A stretch of 64,000 nt of DNA, taken from IMG/VR virus record IMGVR_UViG_3300027759_000044; one strand, given 5' to 3'. Positions 20,701 to 64,000 of the stretch are shown piece by piece (the first letter of the stretch is position 1; every line of letters starts with the position of its first letter). The notes below the pieces were generated by a model that saw nothing but the letters and a program-made list of their open reading frames with translations, was not told where the DNA came from and made no database searches. The translations under genes and the position numbers were made by a program. Origin of the DNA: a virus (taxonomy: Duplodnaviria > Caudoviricetes).

Positions 20701-23700
20701 TGTATAGCGCAATTACTAATAATACATTAGATAATTTAGATTATATTGATCCATTACAAGGTAAAATATTAGGATCAGTAAGACAAAATATTGATGTAGT
20801 ATCAAATGTTGATCCGGCTGGTTATAATAGTCCTGATAATACGCAGGGCTCAATTGTTTGGGGCGGCGCCCAAGTTGGACAATTATGGTTTAACACAAGT
20901 ACTACACGATTTGTAAATTATCATCAGGATGATGTTGTATATAACAGTAAATGGTGGGGACAAATATTCCCAGGCAGTGATGTAACTGTTTATAGTTGGA
21001 TAACAAGTAATGTTCCCCCGATATCATATCCGGGCCCGGGGACACCGTTTACTATTGACAATTTTGCAATTGAATATATTTTAAATGCAACCGGTATATT
21101 AACTCCTGTATACTTCTATTGGGTAAGAAATACTAATATTATATTTACCAAGCTTGGTAAGACTTTAGCTGATAGTATTATTCAATCTTATATTGCGTCA
21201 CCTATTAATTCAGGAATCAGTTATTTTGCTCCTTTAGACCAAGATATATTTGCTTTATATAATTGTGGAGACAACATCAATGCTAATGATACAGTACTAC
21301 ATATAGGTTATTCTACTGGAACAAATGATGATGTTTCACATAGTTTATACAATTTAATTCGTACTAATTATGCTGACGATTTCTTACCTGGATTACCTAC
21401 TGTTGATGGATCTGGCGTTCCTAAATCATTATATGATAGAATGTTAGATAGTTTATGTGGTGTAGATGAATCCGGTGCAGTAGTGCCTGACCCATTCTTA
21501 CCTAAACCAGTTCAATATGGTATATATGCAAGACCAAGACAAGGTTTCTTTGTCAATAGATTACTTGCATTGAAAAATTATTTAACATATGCTAATGACG
21601 TACTAGCACAGTATCCTATTAGTGAAACACGCAGGTCATTGTTTTTGTTTACTGAAGGAGCGATAAATCGTTCAACCGACCCAGTATATAATACTGATCC
21701 AACAAGTCCTTATTATAGTGTCAATCCATGGACAGGTCCAATTATACCATTCTATAATACTACGGATTATTGGTATTATATTAATTGGTGGGCAACTGGG
21801 TATGATAATAATACTAAATCAGCGTTACAAGTACCTATCTATGCTGACTTAGCAACAATAAATGCCACCGCTGGTTTAATTGTTACTGTTACAGCAAACG
21901 GAGATGGTAAATCTGAAACCTATGTATATACTAATTTAAATATATGGGAACGTATTGGTTTACAAGACGGTACTATTGAATTTAGTAGTAATTTGTGGGA
22001 TTATTCGGTGGCTAGATTAGGCTTTGGTGACAATTTCTTTGATACTACGCCGTATGATACATATCCATCACAAGAAACACGTAGTATAGTTAGAGCATTA
22101 AATGAAGAAATTTATACTAATGAATTATTAATCTTTAGAAATAAAAGTTTAATTTTATTATTTGAATTCATTCAAAGTGAATCTATTGAATCACAGAATT
22201 ATTTACCATGGTTAAATAAAACATCATTTGTTGATGTTGGACACACCATACGTGAATTATTACCATTAGAAGTATTCCAATCAGATAATCAAGATTTCTT
22301 AGCCGGGTATGTTAATGAAGTTAAACCGTACCATGTAGTTATTAAAGAGTTCTTATTTAAATATACAGGTTCTGAGTTATATGAAGGAACTATAACTGAT
22401 TTTGATTTACCAGCTCAGTACAATACTGAAATTCAACAGTTTATAACTCCTGAATTAGTATACACTAATCCAAGCGGTGATAATCAATATTTACCTACAG
22501 ATCCTATATGGCAAACTGCTCCGTATTCTGAGTGGTTTAACAATTATGGATTAGGTATTACTGGAGTTGATGATTATCAGATAACCGTGTTGGCATCATA
22601 TGTTTCATTAAATTCGCCGGCTATGGCCGTAGATAATGCGTATGGTTTCCCAATTAATGGTATTATATTAATAGGTGATGAATTAATAGGATATTCTAAT
22701 GTTGACCGATCAAATAATACACTTAGTGGATTAACACGTGGTATTGATGGCACACCAATATCAATACATATTCCGGGAGAAATAATTACAATAAATTTAC
22801 CTGCAGTATTAGTATTAAATAGTGGTCGTGGATATACTGAACCTCCTAGAGTAATTGCATATATTGATACTACTATATATCCAGAACCAAGACGTGCCGC
22901 AGTACTACAAGTAGTAATGAATTTAGATTCAATATTGCGTGTAGATGTAATTGATCCAGGTGATGGATATGTTGTATTACCTGAAATTATAATCGATCCA
23001 TCTGTATCAGTGACATTTACGTCAGACGATGTTAATTTGATATCAAATACAATATCATTACCTTCACCATTATTACAAACTGGTGACTTGATAAAATATA
23101 CTATAGGAACAAATACCACTGCCGTTGGTGGATTAGATGTTGACCAATATTACTATGTACATGTATTAGAAACTACACCAACATTTGTTGTTGCTTTATA
23201 TACTACGTATAGTGATGCTATTAACGATAGTGATCGTGTATTCTTGTTTAATATTGGTTCAGGAGTTAATAATGTATTAAGCGTTAGTGCTAGAGCAAGT
23301 TGTGTATCAACTTCTTTACCAATAAGAGAAAATCAAATTACATTGAGATTTGATAGAACATCGTACAATTCAGAATTAACTGACTGGGTAGGAGGATCAT
23401 TTTATGGAAGTTTCTATGCTGGATTATATAATAATTCAGAAAGAATTTCTAGTTCAAGTATTGGATTACAATCAACTCAACCTGACATTGACACCATATT
23501 AGCCAGTGCGGCAGGCGCAGTTTTTGAAATTGAAGATGTTACAAACGTTGAAGTACTTACTTGGAGCTCACGTACTAGAATTGTATCAGCGATTAATACC
23601 AGTACTAATGTAATAACAATAACTGCTTCAGACGGTGGTGCATCACTTATCAATAGTGATACAATAACTAATCCAACTATAGGTTTTTATATTGGCATGC

Positions 23701-26700
23701 CAATTCAATTTATAGGATCTGTTGCCGGTAACATAATAGTAGAAACTACTTACTATATTAAATCATTAGTTGATGGAGATAAAATTACATTATCTGCTAC
23801 AATATCAGGTGGGGTGCCCGGTGGAGAATTGTCAATGGCGGGAACAACATTAGGATCAGCTGGTTTAACTGCTTATGTAGGTGAAGTAACTAACACCGCG
23901 GTAGTTACTATGTTTTATCCCGGTATATTAACAGCTACAGCTACTACAAGTACAACCAATTCAATAACAGTTCCGTTAACAGGTAGTGGTTTAGGCGGAA
24001 CTACTGGATTCTACACAAATTTACCAGTATTTTTTGTAGGTACTGTATTTGGTGGTGTTATTGAAAATGAGAGATATTATGTTACTACTGTAATAGACGA
24101 TGAAACATTTACTATGTCTACAACAGAAGATCCTGTAATGGTTAGTGTCACCAACACTACAGCTAGTACGGATTATATTACGTGTGATGATGCAACTGGT
24201 TTATCATTCAATGACCCTATAATATTTAATAGTATGAGTGTTAGTGGATCTGCCGTATCAACATTTGGTAATATAGCAGACGGGACCATTTATTATGTAA
24301 GTGCTATAATTAATGATACTAATTTTCAAATATCTACTGTACCTAATGGTGGAACATTTGGCTTAGCTGATCAGGCTGCAGGTACAGGTACAGGATGTAC
24401 AGGAACAGATCAAAAAGATATAGTACAATTAACTACCGCTACAGGTACAATGACATGTAATGTTGGATTACCGGTTAGTCCGGGTCAAGTTACCGGACAA
24501 CAATTTACATTCTATCCAACATCAACAACTACTGTATCTTCTCCTGCATTCACTCAAGGCAATTTGATTACCAGAACTATTAAGAATGCATTAGCTGACG
24601 GAGATTATCTATCATTAGAATCTGAAACCGGTGGTATAACTAATGTTTATGTAAATATGCCTATTAGGGTAGCTGCATCATATGGTGGATTAAGTACAGG
24701 TACAACATATTATGTTAAAGAAATTGGAACAGTAACTACTGAAGTAATTCAAACTACGTCAGCAAACGTATTAATTTCTACAGGTACAGCTGGATTTTAT
24801 GTTAATATGCCTATAACCTTTACAGGGTCTACCTTGGGCGGAACTATTGAAAACACATTGTATTTCGTCAAAACTGTAAATGTTAATGGAACTGATTTTA
24901 CTATCACGGAATCACTGGGTGGCACAACACTTGCCTTGAGTAATGATACAGGATCAATGACAGTAACCGGAGAACCCTACATTAAGGTGTCATCAACACT
25001 GGGAGGCGGGGTCTTACCACTATCAGATTCAGTAATTAATACAAGTACAATATTGACACAGTACCCAACATCAGCTCCGACATTTGATGTAAGTTGGATA
25101 TTAGGTGGGTATAGTGTTGAGGTCACCGGAGCAGGTACAGGATATGCAATTAACAATACCTTTACTGTATTAGGTGCAGCATTATCTGGTACCACTCCAG
25201 CAAATAATTTAGTAATGACAGTTAATACTATCGGAACTAATGGACAAATAACATCATTAATTAATTCAGGTACTCCTCCTGAAATTGTTGAACAATATTA
25301 CTTAAAAGTAATATCAACAACAGAATGTGAAGTGTATAGTGATTCACAATTACAAATTCCAGTTACTGGAATAAACTTCCCGTTCACCTCAGGTGATTAC
25401 GCATTATTACCGGAACCATTCTACTTTAATCAAAGTATCGTCAAATACAACAATAGAGTTTATCAATGTATTGTCAGTAACAATGACACAGAGTTCATAT
25501 TTGGTAAATGGGAAGAATTACGTAGTGACAGTAGAAAACTAAATGCCCTAGATAGAATTATGGGTTATTATCAGCCAACTATTAATATGCCAGGTTTGGA
25601 TTTGACGCAATTAGTAGATGGCATTATTTATCCAAATAGTACATACCAAGATAACGCTTTCCCTCCCTCTGAAGAATACACATTAGATACTATCTTACAG
25701 GATCAATTGTTTAGTCCACTTCAAGTGGATGTTACTTCTATAGTATGGAACGGTACTACATATTTTGCCCCAGCCAATACACCTACATATTCAGATATCA
25801 CTAATAGTACTAATGGAACTACTTGGGTATCTAATAAGTTATCAAATCAACCAATAGCATTAACTGATATAGTATACGCAGATACAAAATATGTCATGAG
25901 TTCACAAAACAATGTAACTCCTATATTAGTAAGTACTGATGGACTTGTCTGGACTACTACTGGGCTAACAATTGGGTCAGTTTCAATAGATAACACAAGT
26001 TTAAATAGTGTTGATTATTTTAACGGCATCTATGTTGCTGTTGGTGATAATATTGTATCTAGTGTGGATGCTTATACCTGGATAGAAAGATTTAACTTCA
26101 CTAATATGGTTTTATATGGTGTATCAGCTATAACTATTACTAATTTTAATGGATTTATTGCTGTTGGAGTTGGCCCTGATTATAGCGTTATCCCTACAAT
26201 AACACAAAGTGTTATATTAAAAAGTTTAGACGGAATATCATGGACAAATATTACACCATCTGCATCAGCCGAAACATTATATGGTGCATCTAGTGGTAAC
26301 AACACTATTGTAGTTGTTGGAAATAACGGAGCTATATTTACAAGTATTAACGGTAGTAACTGGAATAATATTAGTACCGGTAGTGCTAACTTAAGAGATA
26401 TTACTTATTCTGATAGTCTAGGATTATTTGTTATTGTTGGAGAAACTGGATTTATTAGTACATCTGATGGTAGCACATGGTCAGTAGAAACATCAGGTAC
26501 TACTGAAAATCTAAATAGCGTAATATGGAATAGTGATTTAAGTGAATTTATTGTAACAGGTAATAACAATGTTATACTTAAGAGTACAAACGGCACCAAT
26601 TGGACAATTAGTAATATATTTATTACTGACCCTACTATATATGATGTTCAAGGTGATTCATTCACATCGGGTTATGGTCCTGAAGAATTAGTACCGGGAG

Positions 26701-29519: not shown

Positions 29520-29522
29520 ATG

Positions 29523-29529
29523 ATAAATA
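29523..29529 (+). promoter_or_regulatory. T4-like late promoter element, 5 nt before ATG 29535
   Basis: GATAAATA-AATAT-ATG. Confidence 0.6.
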
Positions 29530-29534
29530 AATAT

Positions 29535-29687
29535 ATGAGTGATAATAAAGAAGAAAATAAAGCTAAACCTGTACAGGAATATGGCCCTAAACCCGACGAA
29601 CATGGTGGGTTTTATTTCTCATCACATCTAAAAATAACTGATCCAAATACCAAAGAAGTACTGGTTCAAACAAGAGGCGATAACTAA
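29535..29687 (+). CDS. Small 50-aa protein (not in ORF track)
   Basis: MSDNKEENKAKPVQEYGPKPDEHGGFYFSSHLKITDPNTKEVLVQTRGDN*; fills the gap and its stop overlaps the next ATG (TAATG). Confidence 0.7.
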   Translation: MSDNKEENKAKPVQEYGPKPDEHGGFYFSSHLKITDPNTKEVLVQTRGDN

Positions 29688-30307
29688 TGTCAGTAATAAC
29701 ACTATCATATAAAGTAGAAGGGTTTTTAAAGATTTATGACCCTAATAGCGGAGAAGTTCTAGTAGATAAGCATAATGCTATTAACTACGAAAACATGAGT
29801 GAGGCCATTGCTGATACACTAAGCAGTCGCGGTTACGGAGAGATTTATCAAATGGCATTTGGGAACGGTGGTGCAAGCGTAGATGAAACAGGTGTTATCA
29901 CATATCTACCCCCAAATACTACTGGTCAAAATGCGGCCCTATATAATCAAACCTATGCTAAAATTGTAGATGATACTAGTGTTTTTAACCTAGATCCCAC
30001 ACGTAATAAAATGACAGTTTCTCACACAACCGGTCGTGTTTATACTGACATTTTAGTACAATGTTTATTAGATTACGGTGAGCCTGCAGGACAAAATGCA
30101 TTTGACAATAGTACTCAAACAGATTCAGCTTATGTGTTTGATGAATTGGGTTTATTAGCAAATTACGGAACAGATAGTAACGGGAATGTTCTTACACGAT
30201 TATTAACTCATGTGATTTTTCACCCAGTACAAAAGAGTTTGAATAGACAAATTCAAATAGATTACACAGTCAGAATTCAAAGTTTGACAAATCTAGTGAC
30301 AATTTAA
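29687..30307 (+). CDS. Virion structural protein (baseplate/fibre-associated), function unassigned
   Basis: 206 aa; YQMAFGNGG...FDELGL...LLTHVIFHPVQKSLNRQIQIDYTVRI resembles fibre-attachment proteins; structural context. Confidence 0.55.
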   Translation: MSVITLSYKVEGFLKIYDPNSGEVLVDKHNAINYENMSEAIADTLSSRGYGEIYQMAFGNGGASVDETGVITYLPPNTTGQNAALYNQTYAKIVDDTSVFNLDPTRNKMTVSHTTGRVYTDILVQCLLDYGEPAGQNAFDNSTQTDSAYVFDELGLLANYGTDSNGNVLTRLLTHVIFHPVQKSLNRQIQIDYTVRIQSLTNLVTI

Positions 30308-30308
30308 G

Positions 30309-30315
30309 ATAAATA
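30309..30315 (+). promoter_or_regulatory. T4-like late promoter element (ATAAATA)
   Basis: Intergenic GATAAATA upstream of ATG 30339. Confidence 0.6.
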
Positions 30316-30338
30316 ACAGAATATCGGGATAATTTAAT

Positions 30339-31547
30339 ATGGCATATACGATTGTAAAAAGTGATGGTACAGTACTAACGACCATTGCCGACGGTACTAT
30401 AAACACGACTAGTACATCATTGGGTTTACCGGGCAGGAATTATGCTGGTTACGGTCAATCACTTGATACTAACTTTGTTCATGCAATGGAAAACTTTGCA
30501 GATTCAACACCACCGGCAAATCCATTACGTGGTCAATTATGGTATAACACAAATACTAGTACACTATGTGTATGTCCAGCTGATAATACTACTACAGCAA
30601 GTAATTGGATTACCTTAGCGCAGTCGGGTGGTTCAGGCACAACAACATTTGGATCAGTAACAGTTACTGGAAATCTACAAGCAAATAACATTCAAGCAGT
30701 AAACAATTCAAATGCTGACTCTATCACAACTAGATTATTAACAGTTACAGCTAATGCCTCTATTTCATTAGCTAATGTCACAACTGGCAATATTATTACA
30801 TTAAATACAACAACTATAACAACTGGTGCTAACGCAACACCTGGAAATATTATTGGTACATGGACATTGTCAGGCGGTTCAGGTGGAACATCAAATGCCT
30901 TTATAGTAACAGGTGGTGTCATTAATGCTGTTAACGGTATTAAGACTGACAATTATTATTATGCTAATGGCGCAAACTTTAATCCATCTGGTTCATATAA
31001 TAACGCAAATGTGTTTGACTATTTGACTGGTTCAAATTCAATATCACAATTTACAGGTAATATAGCCCCTACTAAGATTACAACAAGTAATATTGCAGGC
31101 GGTGGAACAATTTTTGGCATTTGGACATTAGGTGCTAACGCAAGATTAAATGCAACTTATGCTGACTTGGCCGAGCGTTTTGAATCAGATAGTCCATATG
31201 ATGCGGGTACTGTAGTAGAATTGGGCGGCAACGCTGAGATTACTGCAGTGGTACATGAATTAAGTGAAGATGTATTTGGTGTTGTATCAAACACAGCGGC
31301 TTATCTAATGAACGCAGGTGCAGGAGATGATTCTACTCATCCCGCAGTTGCTGTAGGTGGTAGGATACATGTTAAAGTCACTGGTAAAGTTTGTAAAGGT
31401 CAACGTCTAGTCTCAGCTGGTAACGGTATTGCTCGGGCAGCTATTGAAGGTGAAGCAACATCATTCAATGTAATTGGTCGTGCTTTAGCTAATAAAACTA
31501 CTGATGATGTTGGAACAGTAGAAGCATTTGTTTCAATTAAAGGATAA
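30339..31547 (+). CDS. Tail fibre-like protein with C-terminal intramolecular-chaperone/autoproteolysis-like domain
   Basis: N-terminal ENFA...PPANPLRGQLWY anchor motif; Thr/Gly/Asn-rich shaft; C-terminal YADLAERF...GTVV...FGVVS...VKVTGKV...IGRAL resembles peptidase G2/S74-type chaperone domains. Confidence 0.6.
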   Translation: MAYTIVKSDGTVLTTIADGTINTTSTSLGLPGRNYAGYGQSLDTNFVHAMENFADSTPPANPLRGQLWYNTNTSTLCVCPADNTTTASNWITLAQSGGSGTTTFGSVTVTGNLQANNIQAVNNSNADSITTRLLTVTANASISLANVTTGNIITLNTTTITTGANATPGNIIGTWTLSGGSGGTSNAFIVTGGVINAVNGIKTDNYYYANGANFNPSGSYNNANVFDYLTGSNSISQFTGNIAPTKITTSNIAGGGTIFGIWTLGANARLNATYADLAERFESDSPYDAGTVVELGGNAEITAVVHELSEDVFGVVSNTAAYLMNAGAGDDSTHPAVAVGGRIHVKVTGKVCKGQRLVSAGNGIARAAIEGEATSFNVIGRALANKTTDDVGTVEAFVSIKG

Positions 31548-55000: not shown

Positions 55001-55812
55001 CTATTGAATCTAAGAATATATTGATTACGAATATGGGAGGCACACGTATTGTTGTACCCAAAGAAGCTAATAATTATGTTGAAAAGGAGTTGTATGATTA
55101 TCCATACATTTCCAAAGCAACAAAGATAGGACAGTCAACGCCACTGGATATAGTCTTCCTAAGTAACGGTGAAACCGGAGCTGACGAGAACTACGAACAC
55201 TTACTGAACGTGACTAAAGGACTGAAAAATCGTGTTGTTAGAGTCGACGGGGTCAATGGTCGTGTTGCTGCCTATCATGCAGCCGCAATTGCTAGTCAAA
55301 CATCTTGGATGTTTACGGTGTTTGCTAAATTAAAAGTTAATAGCAAGTTTGACTGGACATGGCAACCTGATAGATTACAAGTACCTAAACATTATATCTT
55401 CTATGCAAGTAACCCTGTTAATGGATTAGTATATGGTCACCAAGCTATGATTGCGTACAACAAACAGATTACATTAAGTAATATGGGCAAAGGATTAGAC
55501 TTTACATTAGATAGTGAGCATGAAGTTGTTGAGATTAATTCGGGTGTAGCACGTTACAATACAGATGAGTTTAGTACATGGCGCACTAGTTTCCGTGAAG
55601 CTATTAAGTTACGATTAGATGATAGTGCTATTAGTAGACACAGATTGAAAGTATGGACAACCGTTGGTGAAGGAGACTATGCCCAATATAGTACACAAGG
55701 TGCTCAACATGCTGTAGAATACTTTGAACAAGTCAATGGGGATTTAGACAAATTACGACTAAGTTATGATTGGCCTTGGTTGCAAGAGTATTTTAATACT
55801 AAATACAATTGA
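52063..55812 (+). CDS. 1249-aa repeat protein built from GT-A-like fragments
   Basis: About 12 copies of FDFSWxPD-type motifs; C-terminal domain (DIVFLSNGE...RVDGVNGRVAAYHAAA...NGLVYG...WRTSFREA) parallels the 34749 protein. Confidence 0.7.
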   Translation: MLRDVFYYGNKPNVHPREKHAIDLVDARQQATTEHFWIINEYCDYTNFDWDWDFDFLPDEEVWTGEHNNVWPNKQNKDSGTWLCSTQYSDIIIYRADVEPVNRKNTKHNNWVILDKIDETKFDFSWEPNPYDPPYIYKWGCKFYPAEIKHYVEYHVEGATNIKYMPDVVELSPEWDKWKINYSIDKSSFDFSWRPDPREPAFIYMFGNTQYLAETMPTVEYHVSGATEQKFIDDLSMRAKILPNSTRFEHLENCDGIDYSWVPDPWSPPYIYAWGNQWNKPEDKISIQYVVEGATEYKYMEDRATRKPCMDNWEIPPYVIKNSFDFSWEPNPHDPPYIYQFGTVHQKTGGPRYTVPGATELKYIDTVKAEVVAWRFTNWLIPRNVDQASFDWSWHPDDTDPPYIYQFPSTWSKTGGPKFTVEGATETKYIDSLIAKVKQDMTHWSIPEGLDTSEFDFSWHPDVEDKPYIYQFGTQWQKTNGPVFTAPLCDETTPIKYIDIIKAKYLPNKTNWIIPAGFDETKFDFSWHPDATSPAYIYQFGTLLDDVHLEDGPKYVTPDNDGTIVLMENILLSDTVVQYPQYYIETTLEALIEQHIDEIFWALRKNINYTKFDFAWQPTKEQAFNINTFGSPDSELTQTYLVNGKMWQKGYRDISFIENTKLDEEYLSKLFKQVDAFFVDKGNKESATRFEQLKIHFPTLQKTRYLNSWVDTINRCINKSTTELCWILNSELDYTNFDFNYYPNPWQMTMVHVFGTQWSHWGSTFMVNKETFAEDTKYVKIIEHLTNLNFVKTKRAIASNCLYDVYLIDYGNDGVNDIVSLIESKIKRENVYTIKYETDYLTTLKNMLYELGIKKDHYIWVCSSICDYTNFDFTYICDPFSLEQLHVFPSDKQKFGDTFFINVNKLRILVEDLDKLENIEKINFNQHQKVKRLPAPSFVTDADTHLNFKKHSYNFPYAVFTTSDNLIAPDINDEPISMWSIESKNILITNMGGTRIVVPKEANNYVEKELYDYPYISKATKIGQSTPLDIVFLSNGETGADENYEHLLNVTKGLKNRVVRVDGVNGRVAAYHAAAIASQTSWMFTVFAKLKVNSKFDWTWQPDRLQVPKHYIFYASNPVNGLVYGHQAMIAYNKQITLSNMGKGLDFTLDSEHEVVEINSGVARYNTDEFSTWRTSFREAIKLRLDDSAISRHRLKVWTTVGEGDYAQYSTQGAQHAVEYFEQVNGDLDKLRLSYDWPWLQEYFNTKYN
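55799..55805 (+). promoter_or_regulatory. Late promoter element (CTAAATA) for the tmRNA precursor
   Basis: Inside the last codons of the upstream gene; 5 nt later is G55811, just before the first strand that pairs with the coding piece. Confidence 0.55.
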
Positions 55813-56090
55813 AGTTATTGCTGTATGAAGCGATGTAAAATAAGTTCAAGACGCCGGGGCAGTGCCGGCCATCTCCACCTAAGTGTATGAGGTATATTTA
55901 GGTGGGGATGACACAGGATCGATTGGGCAAAGAGTAACAAAGTGGACAGCTCGGCAAAGCAGAAGCCGTTAGGGTTGGGGGAACTCGGCCGTAGAAGCAA
56001 AAAAAGTAACCGCAAACGACTCACAGTTCGCATTGGCAGCTTGATAAAGGCTACCTAGGGTAAGACATACCTCGTAACAGAAACTCAGAA
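55811..56090 (+). ncRNA. ssrA: Circularly permuted (two-piece) tmRNA
   Basis: T-arm GCCGG-GGCAGTG-CCGGC (55853-55869), acceptor 3' strand CATCTCC-ACC (55870-55879), then 5' strand GGGGATG (55904-55910) with G3.U70 pair. GTTCAA 55844-55849 pairs with TTGGGC 55923-55928; GTTATT 55814-55819 with AGTAAC 55933-55938. Tag GCA AAC GAC TCA CAG TTC GCA TTG GCA GCT TGA TAA (56012-56047) = ANDSQFALAA. Ends approximate. Confidence 0.93.
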
Positions 56091-56116
56091 AAGGCTCTTC
56101 GGAGCCTTTCCTATTT
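56090..56116 (+). terminator. Intrinsic terminator-like hairpin after tmRNA
   Basis: AAAGGCTC-TTCG-GAGCCTTT: 8-bp stem with C(UUCG)G tetraloop and an interrupted U-rich tail. Confidence 0.75.
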
Positions 56117-59684: not shown

Positions 59685-59706
59685 TTGTCACTAATTTGTC
59701 ACATAT
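59685..59706 (+). promoter_or_regulatory. Pho-box-like direct repeat
   Basis: TTGTCAC-TAAT-TTGTCAC-ATAT: 11-bp-periodic 7-mers matching the PhoB consensus CTGTCAT-A(A/T)A(A/T)-CTGTCA(C/T). Confidence 0.75.
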
Positions 59707-59712
59707 CTCTCA

Positions 59713-59719
59713 ATAAATA
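59713..59719 (+). promoter_or_regulatory. Late promoter element downstream of the Pho-like box
   Basis: ATAAATA-CTAT-ATG(59724). Confidence 0.6.
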
Positions 59720-59723
59720 CTAT

Positions 59724-60566
59724 ATGAAAACATATCGTTCTATTTTTGTGAGTGATGTACATTTAGGTACCAAAGATAGTCAGGCTGATAAGTTAAATAA
59801 CTTTTTAAAACACAATACATGTGATACACTTTATCTAGTAGGTGATATTATTGATGCATGGCGTATACAGCAAAACAAGTGGCGCTGGAAACAAAGCCAT
59901 ACCAATGTAGTACGTAGAGTGTTAGGCCATGCTAAACGTGGTACTAGAGTTGTTTATATCGCTGGCAATCACGATGAGTTTTTAAGACCTATGATTCCAT
60001 ATGATTTTAGTTTTGGTCTTATAGAAATTCATAATCAAATAGAACATATAGGTATAGATGGAAAGCATTATCTAGTCACACACGGTGATTTATTTGATGG
60101 AATTACACGGCTAGCACCTTGGCTAGCATTTTTAGGAGACAAAGCATATGATTTCATTTTATCGCTCAATAGTAAGTTCAATTGGATACGTCATCGTTTT
60201 GGTTTTGGGTACTTTAGTCTTAGCAAATACCTTAAACACAAAGTAAAAAAAGCCATAGATTTTATGTTTCAGTTTGAAAAGAATCTAGCTGGGTATTGTA
60301 AGAAGCGAGGATTTGATGGTGTAATATGTGGTCATATACACCATGCTGAAATAAAAACTATAGATGGTGTCATTTACATGAATGATGGTGACTGGGTTGA
60401 ATCTTGTACAGCACTAGTAGAACATCATGATGGACGTTGGGAAATAGTTACTTGGACTAGGGAGAAGGACAATGTGGGTATTAATAATTCTAGCAGTTCA
60501 CATGAACGACCCAAAGGACATACCGGGACGAGTGGAGTTGACATTTCAGGACAAACTCTCATGTGA
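59724..60566 (+). CDS. Metallophosphoesterase of the LpxH-like/PlcP family (candidate phospholipase C)
   Basis: SDVHLG, LVGDIID, AGNHD, THGD, CGHIHH, NDGDWVESCTAL. The track start 59685 (TTG) lies in the Pho box; ATG 59724 preferred. Confidence 0.85.
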   Translation: MKTYRSIFVSDVHLGTKDSQADKLNNFLKHNTCDTLYLVGDIIDAWRIQQNKWRWKQSHTNVVRRVLGHAKRGTRVVYIAGNHDEFLRPMIPYDFSFGLIEIHNQIEHIGIDGKHYLVTHGDLFDGITRLAPWLAFLGDKAYDFILSLNSKFNWIRHRFGFGYFSLSKYLKHKVKKAIDFMFQFEKNLAGYCKKRGFDGVICGHIHHAEIKTIDGVIYMNDGDWVESCTALVEHHDGRWEIVTWTREKDNVGINNSSSSHERPKGHTGTSGVDISGQTLM

Positions 60567-60642
60567 ACAAAGTTTACAAAGTATGACATATTGGCTAAAG
60601 TTTAGTCAATTTAAAATTGAAGGAAAGTGTATAAAAAAATGA
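60472..60642 (+). CDS. 56-aa protein with hydrophobic N-terminus and two Cys (not in ORF track)
   Basis: SD GGAGAAGG; MWVLIILAVHMNDPKDIPGRVELTFQDKLSCEQSLQSMTYWLKFSQFKIEGKCIKK*; ends in an ATGA overlap with the GT2 start. Confidence 0.65.
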   Translation: MWVLIILAVHMNDPKDIPGRVELTFQDKLSCEQSLQSMTYWLKFSQFKIEGKCIKK

Positions 60643-61349
60643 AACTCAGTGATAAAATTACTATTGTTGTACCTTGTAAGAATGAAGAAAATTATATTCA
60701 TTATTTGTTAGATTCGTTGCGTAGTCAAGATATTGGTGATACTAGAGTTATCATTGCTGACTGTTCTACTGATAATACTAGACAAGTCATTAACGATAAC
60801 AGTGATTCATTGAATATTGAAATCATTGAGGGTGGTCCTGTTTCTATTGCTAAGAATAACGGAGCACGATTAGTTACTACTCCTTATATACTATTCATTG
60901 ATGCTGATGTTCGTTTCTTTAAAAATAATGTCATTTATGATGCTGTTAATAAAATTGACTCTATGAATTTGGATCTTGTTGGATTGAATATCAAATGTTA
61001 TGACAAAGACCCAAGAGCAATGCTCGGTTTCACTCTTTTTAATACAATAAACAACACATTGAAATATTTTTCACCCTTTGCAGTTGGAGCATTTATGCTA
61101 ACTCGTAAAGATAAGTTTATAGAATACGGTGGATTCCCCGAACAGTTCTCAACTTCCGAAGATTATTTTTTGTCAAGGAAATATAGCCCTAAAAAGTTCA
61201 GAATTGTTAAACATCACTTTGGTCAAGATAGTCGTAGATTTAAAAAGATGGGATATCTTGGTATGGGTAAATATTTAATAAAAAATTTTGTTAATCGCAA
61301 TAATAAAAAATACTGGGATAGTTTAGACTCATCTAAATATTGGTCGTGA
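60639..61349 (+). CDS. Glycosyltransferase family 2
   Basis: ITIVVPCKNEE, IIADCSTD, AKNNGA, LFIDAD, SED, DSRRF. ATG 60639 is coupled to the upstream TGA. Confidence 0.88.
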   Translation: MKLSDKITIVVPCKNEENYIHYLLDSLRSQDIGDTRVIIADCSTDNTRQVINDNSDSLNIEIIEGGPVSIAKNNGARLVTTPYILFIDADVRFFKNNVIYDAVNKIDSMNLDLVGLNIKCYDKDPRAMLGFTLFNTINNTLKYFSPFAVGAFMLTRKDKFIEYGGFPEQFSTSEDYFLSRKYSPKKFRIVKHHFGQDSRRFKKMGYLGMGKYLIKNFVNRNNKKYWDSLDSSKYWS

Positions 61350-61350
61350 T

Positions 61351-61372
61351 TTGTAACATCACTGTCACACAA
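61351..61372 (+). promoter_or_regulatory. Pho-box-like direct repeat
   Basis: TTGTAAC-ATCA-CTGTCAC-ACAA; the proximal half-site is a perfect consensus match. Confidence 0.65.
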
Positions 61373-61378
61373 TATCTA

Positions 61379-61385
61379 TTAAATA
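61379..61385 (+). promoter_or_regulatory. Late promoter element (TTAAATA) followed by a 5' hairpin
   Basis: Predicted +1 G61391 starts hairpin GTGCCA-TGG-TGGCAC; SD AAGGAG 61421-61426. Confidence 0.55.
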
Positions 61386-61432
61386 ATTATGTGCCATGGT
61401 GGCACACAAACTAACCCCACAAGGAGAAACCC

Positions 61433-62080
61433 ATGAGATTAGAAGATTTAGCCGCAAGATTAGTAGCTGTAGAAGCCAAATTAGCAAACCTAACTGGTAC
61501 AACAGTTAATACAGACAGTGCCACAAGCATTGAAGAACTAGACGCAAGACTTTCTGTAGTTGAAGTTCAGGTTGACCAATTAATCATTGAGAAAACAGAA
61601 GCTCACATTGGCGCTATTGTTGCCGCAGTAGCAAATGACGCACCAGTTGACGTAGCAGAAGTAGTTGCATTGTCATCAAGCGTATTCCATGAAGAAGCCG
61701 CTAGCATCGTTACTGATGTTGTTACAGCACAAACTGAAGCTGATCCAATTGTTCATACTGAAGTTGCTGATATTGTTTCAGCCGCTGTCATGGCAGTTGT
61801 TACAGCAGATCCAGAAGTTGTTATTGATCCAGTCGCAATCACAGAAGCTATCATGCAAGCAGTTGCTGATATGCCAGCCCCGACTCCAGAAGTAGCTCAA
61901 CAAGTTGCTGATGCAGTTGCGGAAGTTATCGCTACAGCTACAGGTGTTGAAGCAGTTGCCCCAGAAGTAACACAACAAATTGTGGAAGCAATCGCTACTC
62001 CTGCAGATCCTGCATTAGATGCAATTGAAGCACGTTTGAATATTGCTGAAGCAAAAGTTGATTTCTTGTTGGGAAAGTAA
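61433..62080 (+). CDS. Acidic Ala/Val-rich protein with terminal coiled coils, function unknown
   Basis: Strong SD; 215 aa without Cys, Trp or Tyr; three RLxxhE heptad motifs. Confidence 0.8.
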   Translation: MRLEDLAARLVAVEAKLANLTGTTVNTDSATSIEELDARLSVVEVQVDQLIIEKTEAHIGAIVAAVANDAPVDVAEVVALSSSVFHEEAASIVTDVVTAQTEADPIVHTEVADIVSAAVMAVVTADPEVVIDPVAITEAIMQAVADMPAPTPEVAQQVADAVAEVIATATGVEAVAPEVTQQIVEAIATPADPALDAIEARLNIAEAKVDFLLGK

Positions 62081-62162
62081 TAATTAGTATTAAACGTTGG
62101 TTTTTTACTCTTTTTAAATCGGACACAAAATAGCGTGTCGCTGGATTTGCGTAACCAGTACT

Positions 62163-62186
62163 AAGGGCCCTATAGGGCTCTTTTTT
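62163..62186 (+). terminator. Intrinsic terminator
   Basis: AAGGGCCC-TATA-GGGCTCTT stem-loop running into a T-tract (62181-62186). Confidence 0.75.
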
Positions 62187-62195
62187 ATTGGATAA

Positions 62196-62217
62196 TAGTA
62201 AAACAATTGTCATATTG
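62196..62217 (+). promoter_or_regulatory. Weaker Pho-box-like repeat
   Basis: TAGTAAA-ACAA-TTGTCAT-ATTG; proximal half-site near consensus, distal half degenerate. Confidence 0.5.
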
Positions 62218-62223
62218 CCTAGC

Positions 62224-62230
62224 ATAAATA
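62224..62230 (+). promoter_or_regulatory. Late promoter element (ATAAATA)
   Basis: 7 nt before ATG 62238. Confidence 0.6.
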
Positions 62231-62237
62231 CAGTACT

Positions 62238-63056
62238 ATGAAAAAACTACTACTATTATTATTCGTACTGATTAGTTCAGTTGTCCACGCACAATTACCA
62301 ACTAGTACTGTACCACTACCCGCTGATATTGCCGCAATTAAGAAAGCAAATGTTCTTATTGTGGCAATGACCAAAAAAGATAACCCTCCCTTCTTCAGTG
62401 GTGGCGAGGATGATATCAAAGGTCTTGACGTTGAAATTGCACGAAGAATAGGCGTAATGCTTGGAGTTCCTGTAAAATTTAGACGAGATGCCGAAAGTTT
62501 TGCTGAGGTTGTTGAACAAGTACGAGACGGGCGAGCAGATGTTGCAGTAAGTAAATTATCTGTCACAGCCCCTAGACTACAGGTTGTTAGATTCAGTGAT
62601 CCATATATTAAACTAAGACAAAGTTTAGTTATCAATCGTTTATGGTTAAGTCAAAACAGTCAAGGTAAAGAAACATATCAAGTCATTAGAGATTTTAACG
62701 GTAAGATAAGTTTTATTCGTAACTCAAGCTATGATACATTTGCCCGTATTAATTTCCCTAATGCTGTATTTCTTCCAGAAGATAAGTGGGACGTAATTAT
62801 CGATAAAGTTACACGTGGTGATATCGCAGCCGCTTATCGTGATGAATTTGAGATTAAGAAAATTGCTTTTGAAAAGCCAGATGCGGCAATCACAACAAAA
62901 AGTATTACAATCTCTGATAGCGTGGATAATATTGCTGTAGCAGTCAATCCTAAATCACTACAATTGTTAAGCATTATTAATTACGTTATTAAAAATGAAT
63001 ACAACAACATTGACACTAAAAAGTTAATGGATCGCTACAAAGCTGAAAAGAAATAA
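62238..63056 (+). CDS. Periplasmic amino-acid-type substrate-binding protein (SBP family 3)
   Basis: Signal peptide MKKLLLLLFVLISSVVHA; NPPFF...GLDVEIARRIG...ADVAVSKLSVTAPRLQVVRFSDPY. Confidence 0.85.
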   Translation: MKKLLLLLFVLISSVVHAQLPTSTVPLPADIAAIKKANVLIVAMTKKDNPPFFSGGEDDIKGLDVEIARRIGVMLGVPVKFRRDAESFAEVVEQVRDGRADVAVSKLSVTAPRLQVVRFSDPYIKLRQSLVINRLWLSQNSQGKETYQVIRDFNGKISFIRNSSYDTFARINFPNAVFLPEDKWDVIIDKVTRGDIAAAYRDEFEIKKIAFEKPDAAITTKSITISDSVDNIAVAVNPKSLQLLSIINYVIKNEYNNIDTKKLMDRYKAEKK

Positions 63057-63065
63057 GGACCTAGT

Positions 63066-64000
63066 ATGACAACCGCACATTTAAAATCGTTTTTAACAAG
63101 CCCGTGGACCATACTTGGTTCTATTATAGTGGGCGTACTGAGCGGCGTTTACGCACCTGAGTTCAGCATAAACTTTGACAGTATTGGTAGTATCTATATC
63201 AGCTTACTTAAAGTTGTTGTTCTTCCATTCTTATTAGCAACTATATTAGTTGGTATAATTGGCTTACTACAAAAAGAAGGTAGTCAACAACTAATTCGTA
63301 AAATCATTATTGGTTTTGTGTCTAGTATGTTCTTAGCCGCAATCATTGGTGTTGGTACAGTTCTTGTTACAGGAACTGAAATGACTCCTGAAAAGAAAAC
63401 ACAACTTGGTGTACTAGTTAATACTAAGGATAGTGGAACTGATTTGAACATCACTCTTAAAGAACCAATGCCTATAGCACCAGAAGTTAGTGCTGGTAAA
63501 ATGGCAGAGAAGTTTATTCCAGAGAATATTTTTAATACACTAAACAATGGTGAAAGTTTGAAGATTGTTATATTCTGTTTAATCTTTGGTGTTGCCCTTG
63601 GTCATCTACAAACTGAAGGTCAAAAGATGTTGGTTGAAGTACTTAAAAGCATTCAACAAGCAAGTATCAGCATCTTTAAGTTCTTAAACTACTTCTTACC
63701 AATAGCATTGTTAGCAATGATTGCCGCTCAAGTTGGTAAAGTAGGTGTAGGTATATTCTTAACTATGTTTGACTTTGTGTTCCAGCAATTCATTGGTGGA
63801 CTATTAGTAGTTGCCGCAGGTACTGCTATGATTTGGTGGAGGTCTGGATTAAGTCTCTCCACTGTTATCAAAGAAACTAAAGAAACATTGATTGTTGCTG
63901 TTAGTTCACGTAGCTCTTTAGCTTGCATCCCATACGCACAAGAAGCATTACATAAACTACACTTTGACAAAGGTGGAGTTGAATTAACAGTTCCGTTAAG
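63066..64000 (+). CDS. Dicarboxylate/amino-acid:cation symporter (DAACS, GltP/DctA family), runs off the window end (not in ORF track)
   Basis: SD AAGGA, ATG 63066; open to the end. YISLLKVVVLPF, FIPENIF, IVIFCLIFGVAL, LPIALLAMIAAQV and the HP1 serine motif SSRSSLACIP. Confidence 0.88.
   Translation, partial: MTTAHLKSFLTSPWTILGSIIVGVLSGVYAPEFSINFDSIGSIYISLLKVVVLPFLLATILVGIIGLLQKEGSQQLIRKIIIGFVSSMFLAAIIGVGTVLVTGTEMTPEKKTQLGVLVNTKDSGTDLNITLKEPMPIAPEVSAGKMAEKFIPENIFNTLNNGESLKIVIFCLIFGVALGHLQTEGQKMLVEVLKSIQQASISIFKFLNYFLPIALLAMIAAQVGKVGVGIFLTMFDFVFQQFIGGLLVVAAGTAMIWWRSGLSLSTVIKETKETLIVAVSSRSSLACIPYAQEALHKLHFDKGGVELTVPL

Follow-up and report, generated by a model that had tools for sequence, protein, structure and literature searches.

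A predicted Pho box at a fixed distance from the late-promoter core in large freshwater T4-like phages

The locus described here raises the question of whether the phosphate sensor of a bacterial host can reach into the late transcription of a T4-like phage. The window, i.e. the whole 64-kb stretch of DNA that we analysed, carries three sites, on the + strand like all the features given below, where a Pho-box-like pair of repeats ends exactly 11 nt before the hexamer TAAATA. The first, TTGTCAC-TAAT-TTGTCAC (59685..59702; core at 59714..59719), and the second, TTGTAAC-ATCA-CTGTCAC (61351..61368; core at 61380..61385), agree with the pattern YTGTMAY-N4-YTGTMAY at 14 of 14 positions, and the 64 kb, both strands included, have no other exact match to it. 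The third, TAGTAAA-ACAA-TTGTCAT (62196..62213; core at 62225..62230), matches at 12 of 14, the downstream half-site being perfect and the upstream half-site having two mismatches. On recheck, the coordinates and the 11-nt gap of the original prediction were correct at all three units. With up to two mismatches allowed, the composite pattern occurs three times in the window, where chance would give 0.08, none of 100 shuffled windows reached three, and no other TAAATA in the window had a box of at least 12/14 at the same offset; the suggested test of enrichment over a shuffled background and the claim of bare TAAATA sites elsewhere were both borne out. The box/11 nt/TAAATA pattern in the window is real. 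The claim of three consecutive units, on the other hand, was overstated because the third unit is weak, and its box is mostly unconserved, while the first two are strong.

The same arrangement is found in related phages. In G001, a complete related genome of 348,701 bp with ~85-90% nucleotide identity to the window, the exact box has two copies in 697,366 positions, both with TAAATA 11 nt downstream and both at promoters homologous to those of the window. Six related genomes, 2.16 Mb in total, contain ten perfect boxes, eight of which have TAAATA at exactly 11 nt, as the prediction of enrichment in related phages would have it, and one at 21 nt; a reversed-pattern control over the same 2.16 Mb gave no composites. 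When the regions upstream of unit 2 were aligned (alignment A1, 13 rows, the window and 12 relatives), box, 11-nt gap and TAAATA were present in 13/13 rows, with the repeats and the hexamer invariant and the sequence of the spacer variable. For unit 1, 39 of 58 unique relatives have the box in front of the homologous gene, and the 11-nt spacing is seen in 27 of 40 boxed relatives, with TAAATA in nearly all of these. The box of unit 3 is kept in G001 with one more change and is missing or altered in most of ~50 relatives; the TAAATA upstream of its gene is kept in nearly all. An exact scan of the whole collection returned 124 composites; 54 of them precede pstS homologues and 39 the PlcP-like gene described below. 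Contigs from RNA libraries showed only that sequences are present. Over 178 unique phage composites the consensus reads TTGTAAY-A..A-YTGTAAY-A, and the repeats and TAAATA hold constant as spacers and flanks diverge. Judging from these sequences, the arrangement is common to hundreds of uncultured freshwater T4-like phages.

Unit 1 begins with a PlcP-like metallophosphoesterase of 280 aa (59724..60566; Pfam Metallophos, 3.8e-11), whose ATG stands 4 nt past the hexamer in a leaderless-type geometry. PlcP proteins fall in the YbbF/LpxH-like group without being LpxH and have an upstream Pho box, often together with a glycosyltransferase in the operon; here the Atlas cluster is named MPP_YbbF-LpxH, the box is present, and the operon includes a family-2 glycosyltransferase of 236 aa (60639..61349; Pfam Glycos_transf_2, 4.6e-21). 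LpxH itself was rejected for this gene, which scored 45.6 and 33.6 bits against the LpxH equivalogs of NCBIfam, far under their cut-offs of 134 and 190. Characterised PlcP proteins are SMc00171, MED193_17359 and PB7211_983, and the published partner of PlcP, Agt, is from a different glycosyltransferase family than GT2. A small ORF of 56 aa (60472..60642) lies between the two genes, and the bacterial copy L105 has a translated match to the intergene stretch as well; upstream of the glycosyltransferase, neither box nor TAAATA was seen in the relatives. Many PlcP-like proteins in databases (293-295 aa) are probably mis-started at a TTG within the Pho box. Unit 2 carries a phage-specific gene for an acidic, Ala/Val-rich protein of 215 aa (61433..62080), which has no family in Pfam, NCBIfam or PHROG. 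Its 5' UTR contains a conserved hairpin (61390..61406), 4-5 nt past TAAATA and followed by AAGGAG, with six predicted pairs, one of which shows G-C/A-U covariation in five sequences. Downstream of the gene, a conserved two-hairpin RNA motif (62111-62163) adjoins the intrinsic terminator that closes the unit (62163-62190), and no Rfam family matched at 62111..62190. The box was also seen upstream of candidate small RNAs. Unit 3 encodes a family-3 periplasmic solute-binding protein of 272 aa (62238..63056; Pfam SBP_bac_3, 3.5e-18), with its ATG 7 nt past the core, and a sodium:dicarboxylate/amino-acid symporter of the SDF family (63066..64000, cut by the window end; Pfam SDF, 1e-43), which is full length in G001 and is followed there by an Asp/Glu racemase and a porin. 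The idea of a nutrient regulon stands for the phosphate genes, i.e. the PlcP-like gene of the window and the pstS of relatives; whether it extends to this amino-acid uptake operon is doubtful.

Form, position and company make it very probable that the box is a site for PhoB. Pho boxes of the proteobacterial type are two CTGTCAT-like 7-bp direct repeats 4 bp apart, with an 11-bp period, located in the -35 place, ending about 10 bp before a -10 element and sited upstream of Pho-regulon genes. Units 1 and 2 have exactly these repeats, as had been proposed, in the -35 place and 11 nt before the hexamer, and the genes downstream are the PlcP-like gene and, in relatives, pstS (PF12849, 1e-35). When pstS upstream regions were picked by protein homology, the box was present in 46 of 55, with the exact 11-nt gap to TAAATA in 35. 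Bacterial homologues of the phosphoesterase, at 55-60% identity, also have CTGTCAT-type Pho boxes upstream, and in a candidate host order the region between phoU and a pstC-like gene has a TTGTAAT box. It could be argued that the repeats are bound, with no role for phosphate, by some other OmpR-family regulator of the host or by a phage factor that escaped recognition, since sites of this family are similar, being direct repeats with a 10-11-bp period, and since, as work on cyanophages warns (PMC10976474), a Pho box that is only predicted cannot be relied on until binding is tested. We consider this very improbable given the highly specific association with pstS (54/124 composites; 46/55 upstream regions) and with the PlcP-like gene, and the presence of the same box at phoU/pstC and plcP in bacteria. 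Moreover, G001 has no Trans_reg_C domain and encodes no regulator of the OmpR/PhoB type. The bacterial copy of the operon that comes closest to the phage version lies in a low-GC genome bin, where PhoB (289 bits; cut-off 296), encoded beside phoR, is the only OmpR-family protein found.

That copy, 75-79% identical and adjoining pyrG, also bears on the origin of the promoters. The PlcP-like operon is clearly bacterial in origin, and the boxes might be functionless relics of captured host genes, their 11-nt spacing reflecting common descent. We give this hardly any credence: the repeats and TAAATA remain invariant amid diverging spacers and flanks, and the box precedes the phage-specific 215-aa ORF and the candidate small RNAs as well. 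In addition, the bacterial versions have a 10-nt spacer, varied TAnnnn hexamers and an ATG that is 7-8 nt away, which marks the phage promoter as rebuilt, not inherited.

TAAATA is the phage late-promoter core. In G001, 114 of its 466 copies are intergenic though intergenic DNA makes up 4.8% of the genome, the highest intergenic share among hexamers of the same composition, and it lies at most 60 nt upstream of 134 of the 389 ORFs, where no -35 or other upstream signal was seen. An A is preferred at -1 of the hexamer, making the core a 6-7-bp (A)TAAATA. It is found upstream of portal, terminase and sheath genes and not upstream of the polymerase, gp46, gp47 and gp55 genes. This intergenic enrichment, the lack of a -35 partner and the placement at virion genes support what the original prediction had said of the hexamer. 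The distance from TAAATA to the ATG in G001 has a sharp peak at 4 nt (14 genes) and 5 nt (17 genes); these 31 form a class of leaderless-type late genes to which unit 1 belongs. The sigma70 promoters of G001 are a separate class, with TTGACA, 16-18 nt and TATAAT (17 exact copies), and their canonical form is TTGACA-N17-TATAAT. The suggested search for a phage gp55 and a phoB-like gene succeeded for the first and failed for the second: G001 encodes a gp55-like sigma factor (phrog_12791, 1.6e-70; T4 gp55 structure 7d7c_F, E 2e-4), whose best fold match is gp55. The evidence for gp55 comes from G001 only, the gene being outside the 64-kb window, and with it both marks of a late promoter are present, a core without a -35 and a gp55 homologue. 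The gp55-like protein has an extra domain of ~160 aa in which no sigma-4-like fold was recognisable. A homologue of the clamp loader gp44 was found, and a search for the gp45 clamp with a pelagimyophage protein as query gave no match.

Taken together, it can be hypothesized, with a probability of about 0.4, that these are composite promoters in which a TAAATA read by gp55 is combined with a predicted PhoB box that modulates initiation by host phosphate status. The T4 late core TATAAATA spans -13 to -6 (PMC2988020), and therefore the 11-nt spacer would put the end of the box near -23, as in sigma70 Pho promoters. The Pho box, two TGTMAY repeats with an 11-bp period, would occupy the -35 place, fused at 11 nt to a TAAATA read by the phage gp55-type late holoenzyme, and transcription would start 5-6 nt past the hexamer. 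The mRNA of unit 1 would thus begin with the A of its ATG and be leaderless, and that of unit 2 would begin at the base of the 5' hairpin. Under phosphate starvation of the host, phosphorylated PhoB would sit on the box, which spans roughly -22 to -40 relative to the presumed start, and would modulate initiation there, most likely upward, and the phosphate-economy genes of the phage, i.e. those for the PlcP-like protein and glycosyltransferase here and pstS in relatives, would thereby track host phosphate. Of this scheme we infer the binding of PhoB, the sign of its effect, and gp55 rather than sigma70 as the partner holoenzyme. A direct input of host phosphate status into phage-specific transcription is probable.

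Alternatively, the promoter may be of dual use, where PhoB works with sigma70 only, TAAATA serving as a weak -10 for early phosphate-dependent expression, and gp55 acts late and independently of PhoB. The two inputs would then be additive, as in an OR gate, with no PhoB-gp55 interplay. To our knowledge, PhoB activates transcription only through contact with sigma70 region 4, and the -10 of E. coli phoE is TAAAAA. In the candidate host order, the box/11 nt/TAAATA arrangement occurs at pstC/phoU in two bacterial genomes, and therefore the sigma70 holoenzyme is probably able to use it; other sites there have the box, 10 nt and TATTTT, TATGCT or TATACT. Some phage pstS genes have tandems, box/13 nt/TATAAT/2 nt/TAAATA or box/10 nt/TATAAT/5 nt/TAAATA, and a consensus TATAAT between box and TAAATA points to the sigma70 route, in those pstS promoters at least. 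However, the ATG of the PlcP-like gene is 4-5 nt past TAAATA in 17 of 24 relatives, which would leave a sigma70 start, 7 +/- 1 nt past the hexamer, within the start codon or even after it. TAAATA also lacks the T at -7, yet the unique phage promoters with an 11-nt gap show no drift to TATAAT or TAAAAT, and hexamers at the equivalent bacterial position are diverse. Dual use seems rather unlikely to us. The leaderless geometry, with the ATG 4-5 nt on, a spacer of 11 nt instead of the bacterial 10 and the invariance of TAAATA fit a gp55 reading better than a sigma70 reading. T4 gp55 is without sigma region 4, and gp33 sits on the flap tip (PMC2988020, PMC7892883). That PhoB directly activates such a region-4-less polymerase, via a new contact with the extra domain, a gp33-like factor or core polymerase, is possible though doubtful. 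We know of no PhoB contact surface on a gp55 holoenzyme.

Another possibility is that PhoB at -22 to -40 is a repressor which blocks the gp33/gp45-activated late complex, such that phage pstS and plcP are made only with the host Pho regulon off. No new protein contact would be needed, the box overlaps upstream DNA that is held by the T4 late activation complex (PMC7892883), and the logic is coherent, as the phage would supply the function only when the host does not. Nevertheless, repression is improbable: cyanophage pstS and other genes rise in phosphate-starved hosts (PMC10976474), box position and strict phasing are of the class II activation type, and the equivalent position serves activation in the bacterial homologues.

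The composite promoter can be set against several known systems. The original prediction knew of no described mechanism, but T4-like phage genes governed by a host PhoB have been described in cyanophages: the P-SSM2 genes pstS and phoA (Zeng and Chisholm 2012, as cited in PMC10976474) and genes of S-PM2d (PMC10976474) are under host PhoBR. What differs is the fusion to a late core. In both cases, T4-like phages carry phosphate-related auxiliary genes behind host-type Pho boxes. In cyanophages, the host regulator binds the phage promoters and expression goes up upon phosphate starvation, whereas both are predicted from sequence here. The cyanophage box, of 8-bp PyTTAAPyPy(T/A) repeats, lies at variable positions from -25 to -162, in contrast to the fixed 11 nt here, and a fixed fusion to a late-promoter core is not described for it; its cargo is pstS, phoA and replication genes in cyanobacterial hosts, instead of a PlcP-like lipid module. 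The PhoB-sigma70 promoters of proteobacteria (E. coli pstS, phoA and phoE; bacterial plcP, PMC4796936), where CTGTCAT-like 7-bp repeats with a 4-bp spacer replace the -35, share the strict distance to a -10-like element and the gene types (pstS, plcP). They have a 10-nt spacer, a variable TAnnnT and an ATG 7-8 nt past the hexamer, unlike the 11 nt, the invariant TAAATA, which is the late core, and the 4-5 nt of the PlcP-like family. T4 late promoters, in which TATAAATA is read by gp55 with gp33 and the gp45 clamp (PMC2988020, PMC7892883), are alike in their AT-rich, -10-like core without a -35, the gp55 homologue in the lineage and the virion genes downstream. However, they are activated by the sliding clamp with no site-specific upstream activator, whereas here a regulator site is predicted at -22 to -40, the core is (A)TAAATA, and many transcripts are apparently leaderless. 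Host PhoB also binds Pho boxes in a prophage, at the stx2AB promoter region of 933W (PMC3978041), close to genes that are expressed late; for the present boxes binding is predicted. Unlike the present phages, 933W is lambdoid and temperate, with a sigma70 promoter under Q antitermination and no phage sigma factor. Finally, T4 middle promoters, with a MotA box at -30 and a sigma70 -10 used together with AsiA, are likewise composite, an activator box at a fixed distance standing in place of the -35. Their activator is phage-encoded, remodels sigma70 and serves a whole temporal class, whereas the box here occurs two to three times per genome and matches a host regulator.

If PhoB does activate the gp55 holoenzyme, a late promoter that is otherwise activator-free and coupled to replication would become nutrient-gated. 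Host phosphate-sensor control of phage auxiliary genes would no longer be limited to cyanophages. It would extend to a very abundant clade, the large freshwater T4-like phages of proteobacteria, and the cargo under control would comprise pstS, the PlcP-like lipid-remodelling module, an uncharacterised membrane protein and candidate small RNAs. The question that this sets up is whether an activator of the OmpR/PhoB family can work on a sigma-4-less holoenzyme or whether two holoenzymes share one hexamer, and either answer would add to the textbook account, in which T4 late transcription lacks a site-specific activator. The composite motif could also provide a simple marker for phosphate-responsive phage genes in metagenomes.

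The original prediction had placed Pho-type boxes exactly 11 nt upstream of a phage late-promoter core, TAAATA, in three consecutive units, and all three were recovered: in unit 1 the box spans 59685-59702 and TAAATA begins at 59714, in unit 2 the box spans 61351-61368 and TAAATA begins at 61380, and in unit 3 the box spans 62196-62213 and TAAATA begins at 62225. The exact pattern YTGTMAY-N4-YTGTMAY occurs on the two strands of the window at units 1 and 2 only, and the upstream half-site of unit 3 carries two mismatches. When up to two mismatches were allowed, box/11 nt/TAAATA was found three times in the window against 0.08 expected, and none of 100 dinucleotide-preserving shuffles gave three composites. 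At the 11-nt offset, no comparable box precedes any further TAAATA of the window. A consensus scan flagged possible sigma70 promoters at units 1 and 3 (TTGTCA/16 nt/TACTAT or TACAGT), a reading that we rejected: relatives do not conserve the second hexamer, and transcription from it would begin inside the gene.

A T4-like myovirus is the source of the window, which corresponds to its tail and baseplate region and encodes baseplate wedge and hub proteins and, in the tail-fibre region, a single ORF of 5,917 aa (11766-29519, + strand). In IMG/VR, relatives of the unit 1 phosphoesterase gene number more than 596 and lie on contigs reaching 350-520 kb; no close isolate genome was found in the phage collection, the sole matches there being two short ones, at ~70% identity, to pelagiphages. 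As a stand-in for the whole genome of the window's phage we used the related genome G001 (348,701 bp, CheckV 100%), which shares 83-93% nucleotide identity with the window over the shared parts. Pieces of the three units were present in four lake-water metatranscriptome runs, as contigs that show presence only.

The three units differ in how well the composite is conserved. For unit 1, among 58 unique sequences upstream of the phosphoesterase gene, 39 have the box, and in a second count the gap was 11 nt in 27 of 40 boxed sequences, nearly all of them with TAAATA; relatives with this gap have an ATG 4-7 nt past TAAATA. For unit 2, box, 11 nt and TAAATA were present in all 13 rows of an alignment of the window with 12 relatives; the spacer differs between rows, and no change occurs in the repeats or in TAAATA. 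We consider it highly improbable that the boxes are functionless relics. The unit 2 transcript region has a 5' hairpin, beginning 4-5 nt past TAAATA and with one covarying pair, followed by a strong AAGGAG. In unit 3, TAAATA and its closeness to the ATG are conserved in ~50 relatives but the box is not; it is kept in the closest relatives only, with an in-register single TTGTAAT half-site in a few others, so unit 3 is at best a weak, lineage-specific site.

The unit 1 gene encodes a metallophosphoesterase of the LpxH-like group that falls below the LpxH cut-offs and is therefore a PlcP candidate; a 56-aa ORF and a GT2 glycosyltransferase follow on its 3' side. Database proteins of this family are mostly 293-295 aa long, which fits a TTG start inside the Pho box (59685); the more likely start is the conserved ATG (59724; 280 aa), 4-7 nt past TAAATA. 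Unit 2 encodes an acidic 215-aa protein of unassigned family, with a structured RNA motif and then a terminator 3' of it; the weak unit 3 encodes a family-3 binding protein together with an SDF symporter. Beyond the window end, the region downstream of the symporter in G001 (27986-31534, - strand; L084 7986-11534) carries a 201-aa ORF, an Asp/Glu racemase and a Gram-negative porin. The last of these has a separate, full TATAAATA promoter without a box, and two perfect TTGACA-N17-TATAAT early promoters lie 3' of the porin.

The RNA motif (62111-62190, + strand) consists of two hairpins whose loops are conserved, in most cases with a terminator 3' of them, and was also found in L003, L009, L015, L029, L071, L312, L345 and ~25 more loci. 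Across 27 distinct sequences, 243 of 243 pair cells are paired (100%), five of the nine pairs show compensatory changes, and the covariation score is 0.396 versus 0.168 in shuffles, none of 500 of which reached the observed value; an Rfam search returned no family at the motif. Its positions are 3' of the 215-aa ORF, 3' of phage pstS, in the interval that separates pstS from the PlcP-like gene, or within the 5' UTR of the PlcP-like gene. Since in L345 and L312 the motif stands alone, immediately 3' of a composite promoter, it is a candidate Pho-controlled small RNA of ~70 nt.

Several independent lines of comparison make it very probable that the box is a PhoB site, as predicted. Another complete related genome, G005, has a perfect composite in front of a gene of the PstS family (PF12849, 1e-35). 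Scanning IMG/VR for the exact pattern gave at least 124 composites, and among those listed at least 54 precede pstS homologues, at least 39 the PlcP-like gene and at least 4 the 215-aa ORF; others among the matches listed precede a second PstS, outer-membrane beta-barrels and a recurrent 319-aa membrane protein. When phage pstS homologues were instead gathered by protein similarity, which is unbiased as to the box, 46 of 55 unique upstream regions had a box matching at 12 or more of 14 positions, 39 of them perfect, and the next TAAATA followed after exactly 11 nt in 35 regions, after 10 nt in one and after 21 nt in eight. The positional enrichment that the original prediction called for is likewise seen genome-wide, where six related genomes (2.16 Mb) contain 10 perfect boxes, with TAAATA following eight of them after 11 nt and one after 21 nt; a reversed-pattern control occurred in these genomes at similar frequency and gave zero composites.

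Bacterial homologues of the phosphoesterase (55-60% identity), mostly from Hyphomonadaceae and other Alphaproteobacteria, have CTGTCAT-type boxes at the same place, in agreement with published plcP Pho boxes (PMC4796936); in Hellea and Robiginitomaculum, no large same-strand ORF directly follows the homologue. That some protein other than PhoB binds the box seems to us quite improbable. G001 has no Trans_reg_C domain, the DNA-binding domain of OmpR/PhoB-type regulators, so no phage-encoded PhoB-like regulator is evident in this relative, in keeping with the host sensor originally proposed.

Two further observations concern other phages. A multi-pass membrane protein of 319-323 aa, with no Pfam family, lies directly 3' of Pho-box/TAAATA composites in other phage contigs (L289:3636-4595, - strand; L346:5494-6453, - strand; L294:233-1204, + strand; and others) and is a candidate phosphate-related transporter. 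In the isolated pelagimyophage Mosig, a homologous gene annotated as 'UDP-2,3-diacylglucosamine hydrolase' is divergent from pstS, and the intergenic region (L182 3283-3432; record 93979-94128) contains several copies of a (T/C)TTAAC motif, two of which lie 11 bp from each other, with TAAATA 5 nt before the ATG. This arrangement may be a SAR11-type counterpart of the box/TAAATA promoters, and the position of the gene opposite pstS is a further pointer to PhoB.

TAAATA itself is the core of late promoters in this phage lineage. In G001 it has the top intergenic enrichment among hexamers of the same composition, with 114 of 466 copies in the non-coding 4.8% of the genome, and it lies within 60 nt upstream of 134 of 389 ORFs, with A favoured at -1 and no conserved -35-like signal upstream of the sites. 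Portal, terminase and sheath genes have TAAATA upstream, and those for polymerase, gp46, gp47 and gp55 do not; the sigma70 promoters of G001 form a canonical class of their own (TTGACA, 16-18 nt, TATAAT; 17 exact copies). The late sigma factor expected from the original prediction was found in G001 rather than in the window itself, as a gp55-like protein (86506-87417; L087:6506-7417) matching phrog_12791 (1.6e-70) and, by sequence, T4 gp55 (7d7c_F, E 2e-4), which is also the best fold match of its AlphaFold model (pLDDT 87). At 303 aa versus 185 aa in T4, it resembles gp55 and sigma region 2 only in its C-terminal part; a confidently modelled alpha/beta insertion of ~160 residues separates the first helix from the sigma-2-like core. 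In a search for a sigma-4-like domain in this protein, Pfam returned nothing and the inserted domain had no confident PDB match. A gp45 clamp was not found with the pelagimyophage protein as query, and a neighbouring ORF considered as a gp45 candidate turned out to be no clamp. The distance from TAAATA to the ATG in G001 peaks sharply at 4 nt (14 genes) and 5 nt (17 genes), so these 31 genes appear to have leaderless late mRNAs starting 5-6 nt past the core, which implies that such mRNAs would be widespread in this jumbo T4-like lineage. Genes of this kind are spread genome-wide in G001 (L083-L100), and examples in the window are at 59714 and 43036.

Which polymerase reads the composite is the harder question, and we give a probability of roughly 40% to PhoB acting on a gp55-defined start. 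In favour of this reading, TAAATA is unvarying in unique phage promoters with the 11-nt gap, the corresponding hexamer varies in the bacterial homologues and in Pho promoters of the candidate host order (e.g., TATGGT, TAAGGG, TATTTT, TATACT), and the spacer is 11 nt in phage versus 10 nt in bacteria. The PlcP-like gene belongs to the leaderless-type class, with 4 nt from TAAATA to the ATG here and 4-5 nt in 17 of 24 relatives, and the equivalent distance in the bacterial phosphoesterase homologues is 7-8 nt. The sigma70 hexamer occupies -12 to -7 and transcription starts 7 +/- 1 nt past it; a sigma70 start would miss the unit 1 start codon. In T4, TATAAATA spans -13 to -6 (PMC2988020, 'A(-13) in place of T'), which puts TAAATA at -11 to -6, one base nearer the start than the sigma70 hexamer, so that the 11-nt spacer holds the end of the box near -23.

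Against a gp55-defined start, PhoB is to our knowledge known to act solely through sigma70 region 4. This region is lacking in gp55, and the flap tip is taken by gp33 (PMC2988020, PMC7892883); nor does the inserted domain of the gp55-like protein show a sigma-4-like fold. A complex prediction of this protein with the C-terminal domain of PhoB from the candidate donor genome scored 0.00, which speaks neither for nor against. Box/11 nt/TAAATA is also found at pstC/phoU in two bacterial genomes, and TATAAT, the consensus sigma70 -10, lies between box and TAAATA in some pstS promoters. A model in which the same promoters serve both sigma70 and gp55 is, in our judgement, possible but on the unlikely side, and one in which PhoB represses the composites is improbable. 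The TATAAT-containing variants upstream of phage pstS (L384, L386, L387, L403, L411, L437, L455) read box/13 nt/TATAAT/2 nt/TAAATA or box/10 nt/TATAAT/5 nt/TAAATA, TAAATA thus lying 21 nt from the box, i.e. 11 nt plus one helical turn.

As to the host, the phosphoesterase/small ORF/GT2 operon also occurs, at 75-79% identity, beside pyrG in a low-GC bacterial bin (L105, contig CAXNNI010000080.1 of the 'Gammaproteobacteria bacterium' MAG G002). The contig has ~30% GC, and the bin, of ~0.8 Mb, has phoB-phoR and pstS, with PhoB the sole OmpR-family protein found in it; L105 may stem from a lineage of donors or hosts, or the contig may be chimeric. Perfect boxes in the order of this bin, the candidate host order, are of the TTGTAAT flavour, like the phage consensus, and one lies between phoU and a pstC-like gene, which again points to PhoB. 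The window also encodes a permuted, two-piece tmRNA (55778-56113, + strand; Rfam RF04321, 104 bits), missed by ARAGORN, which reported no tRNA or tmRNA in the window; it scores 98.6 bits, above the gathering score, with the Betaproteobacteria tmRNA model RF01850, which hints at a betaproteobacterial host. Taken with the low-GC operon copy, this beta-type tmRNA would hint at a streamlined freshwater proteobacterium.

Expression and EMSA data have established that the host PhoBR system controls genes of T4-like cyanophages (PMC10976474 and work cited there), and PhoB binds the promoter region of a lambdoid phage (PMC3978041). In the pelagimyophages, the nearest described group, late promoters were not predictable (PMC7029224), and our literature search found no publication that connects Pho boxes with late cores of the gp55 type. 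Since PhoBR control is already established for T4-like cyanophages and this connection was not found published, the composites of the window are a further variant on a known theme, and what is new here is the type of box, the host range, the strictly phased fusion to a late core and the cargo.
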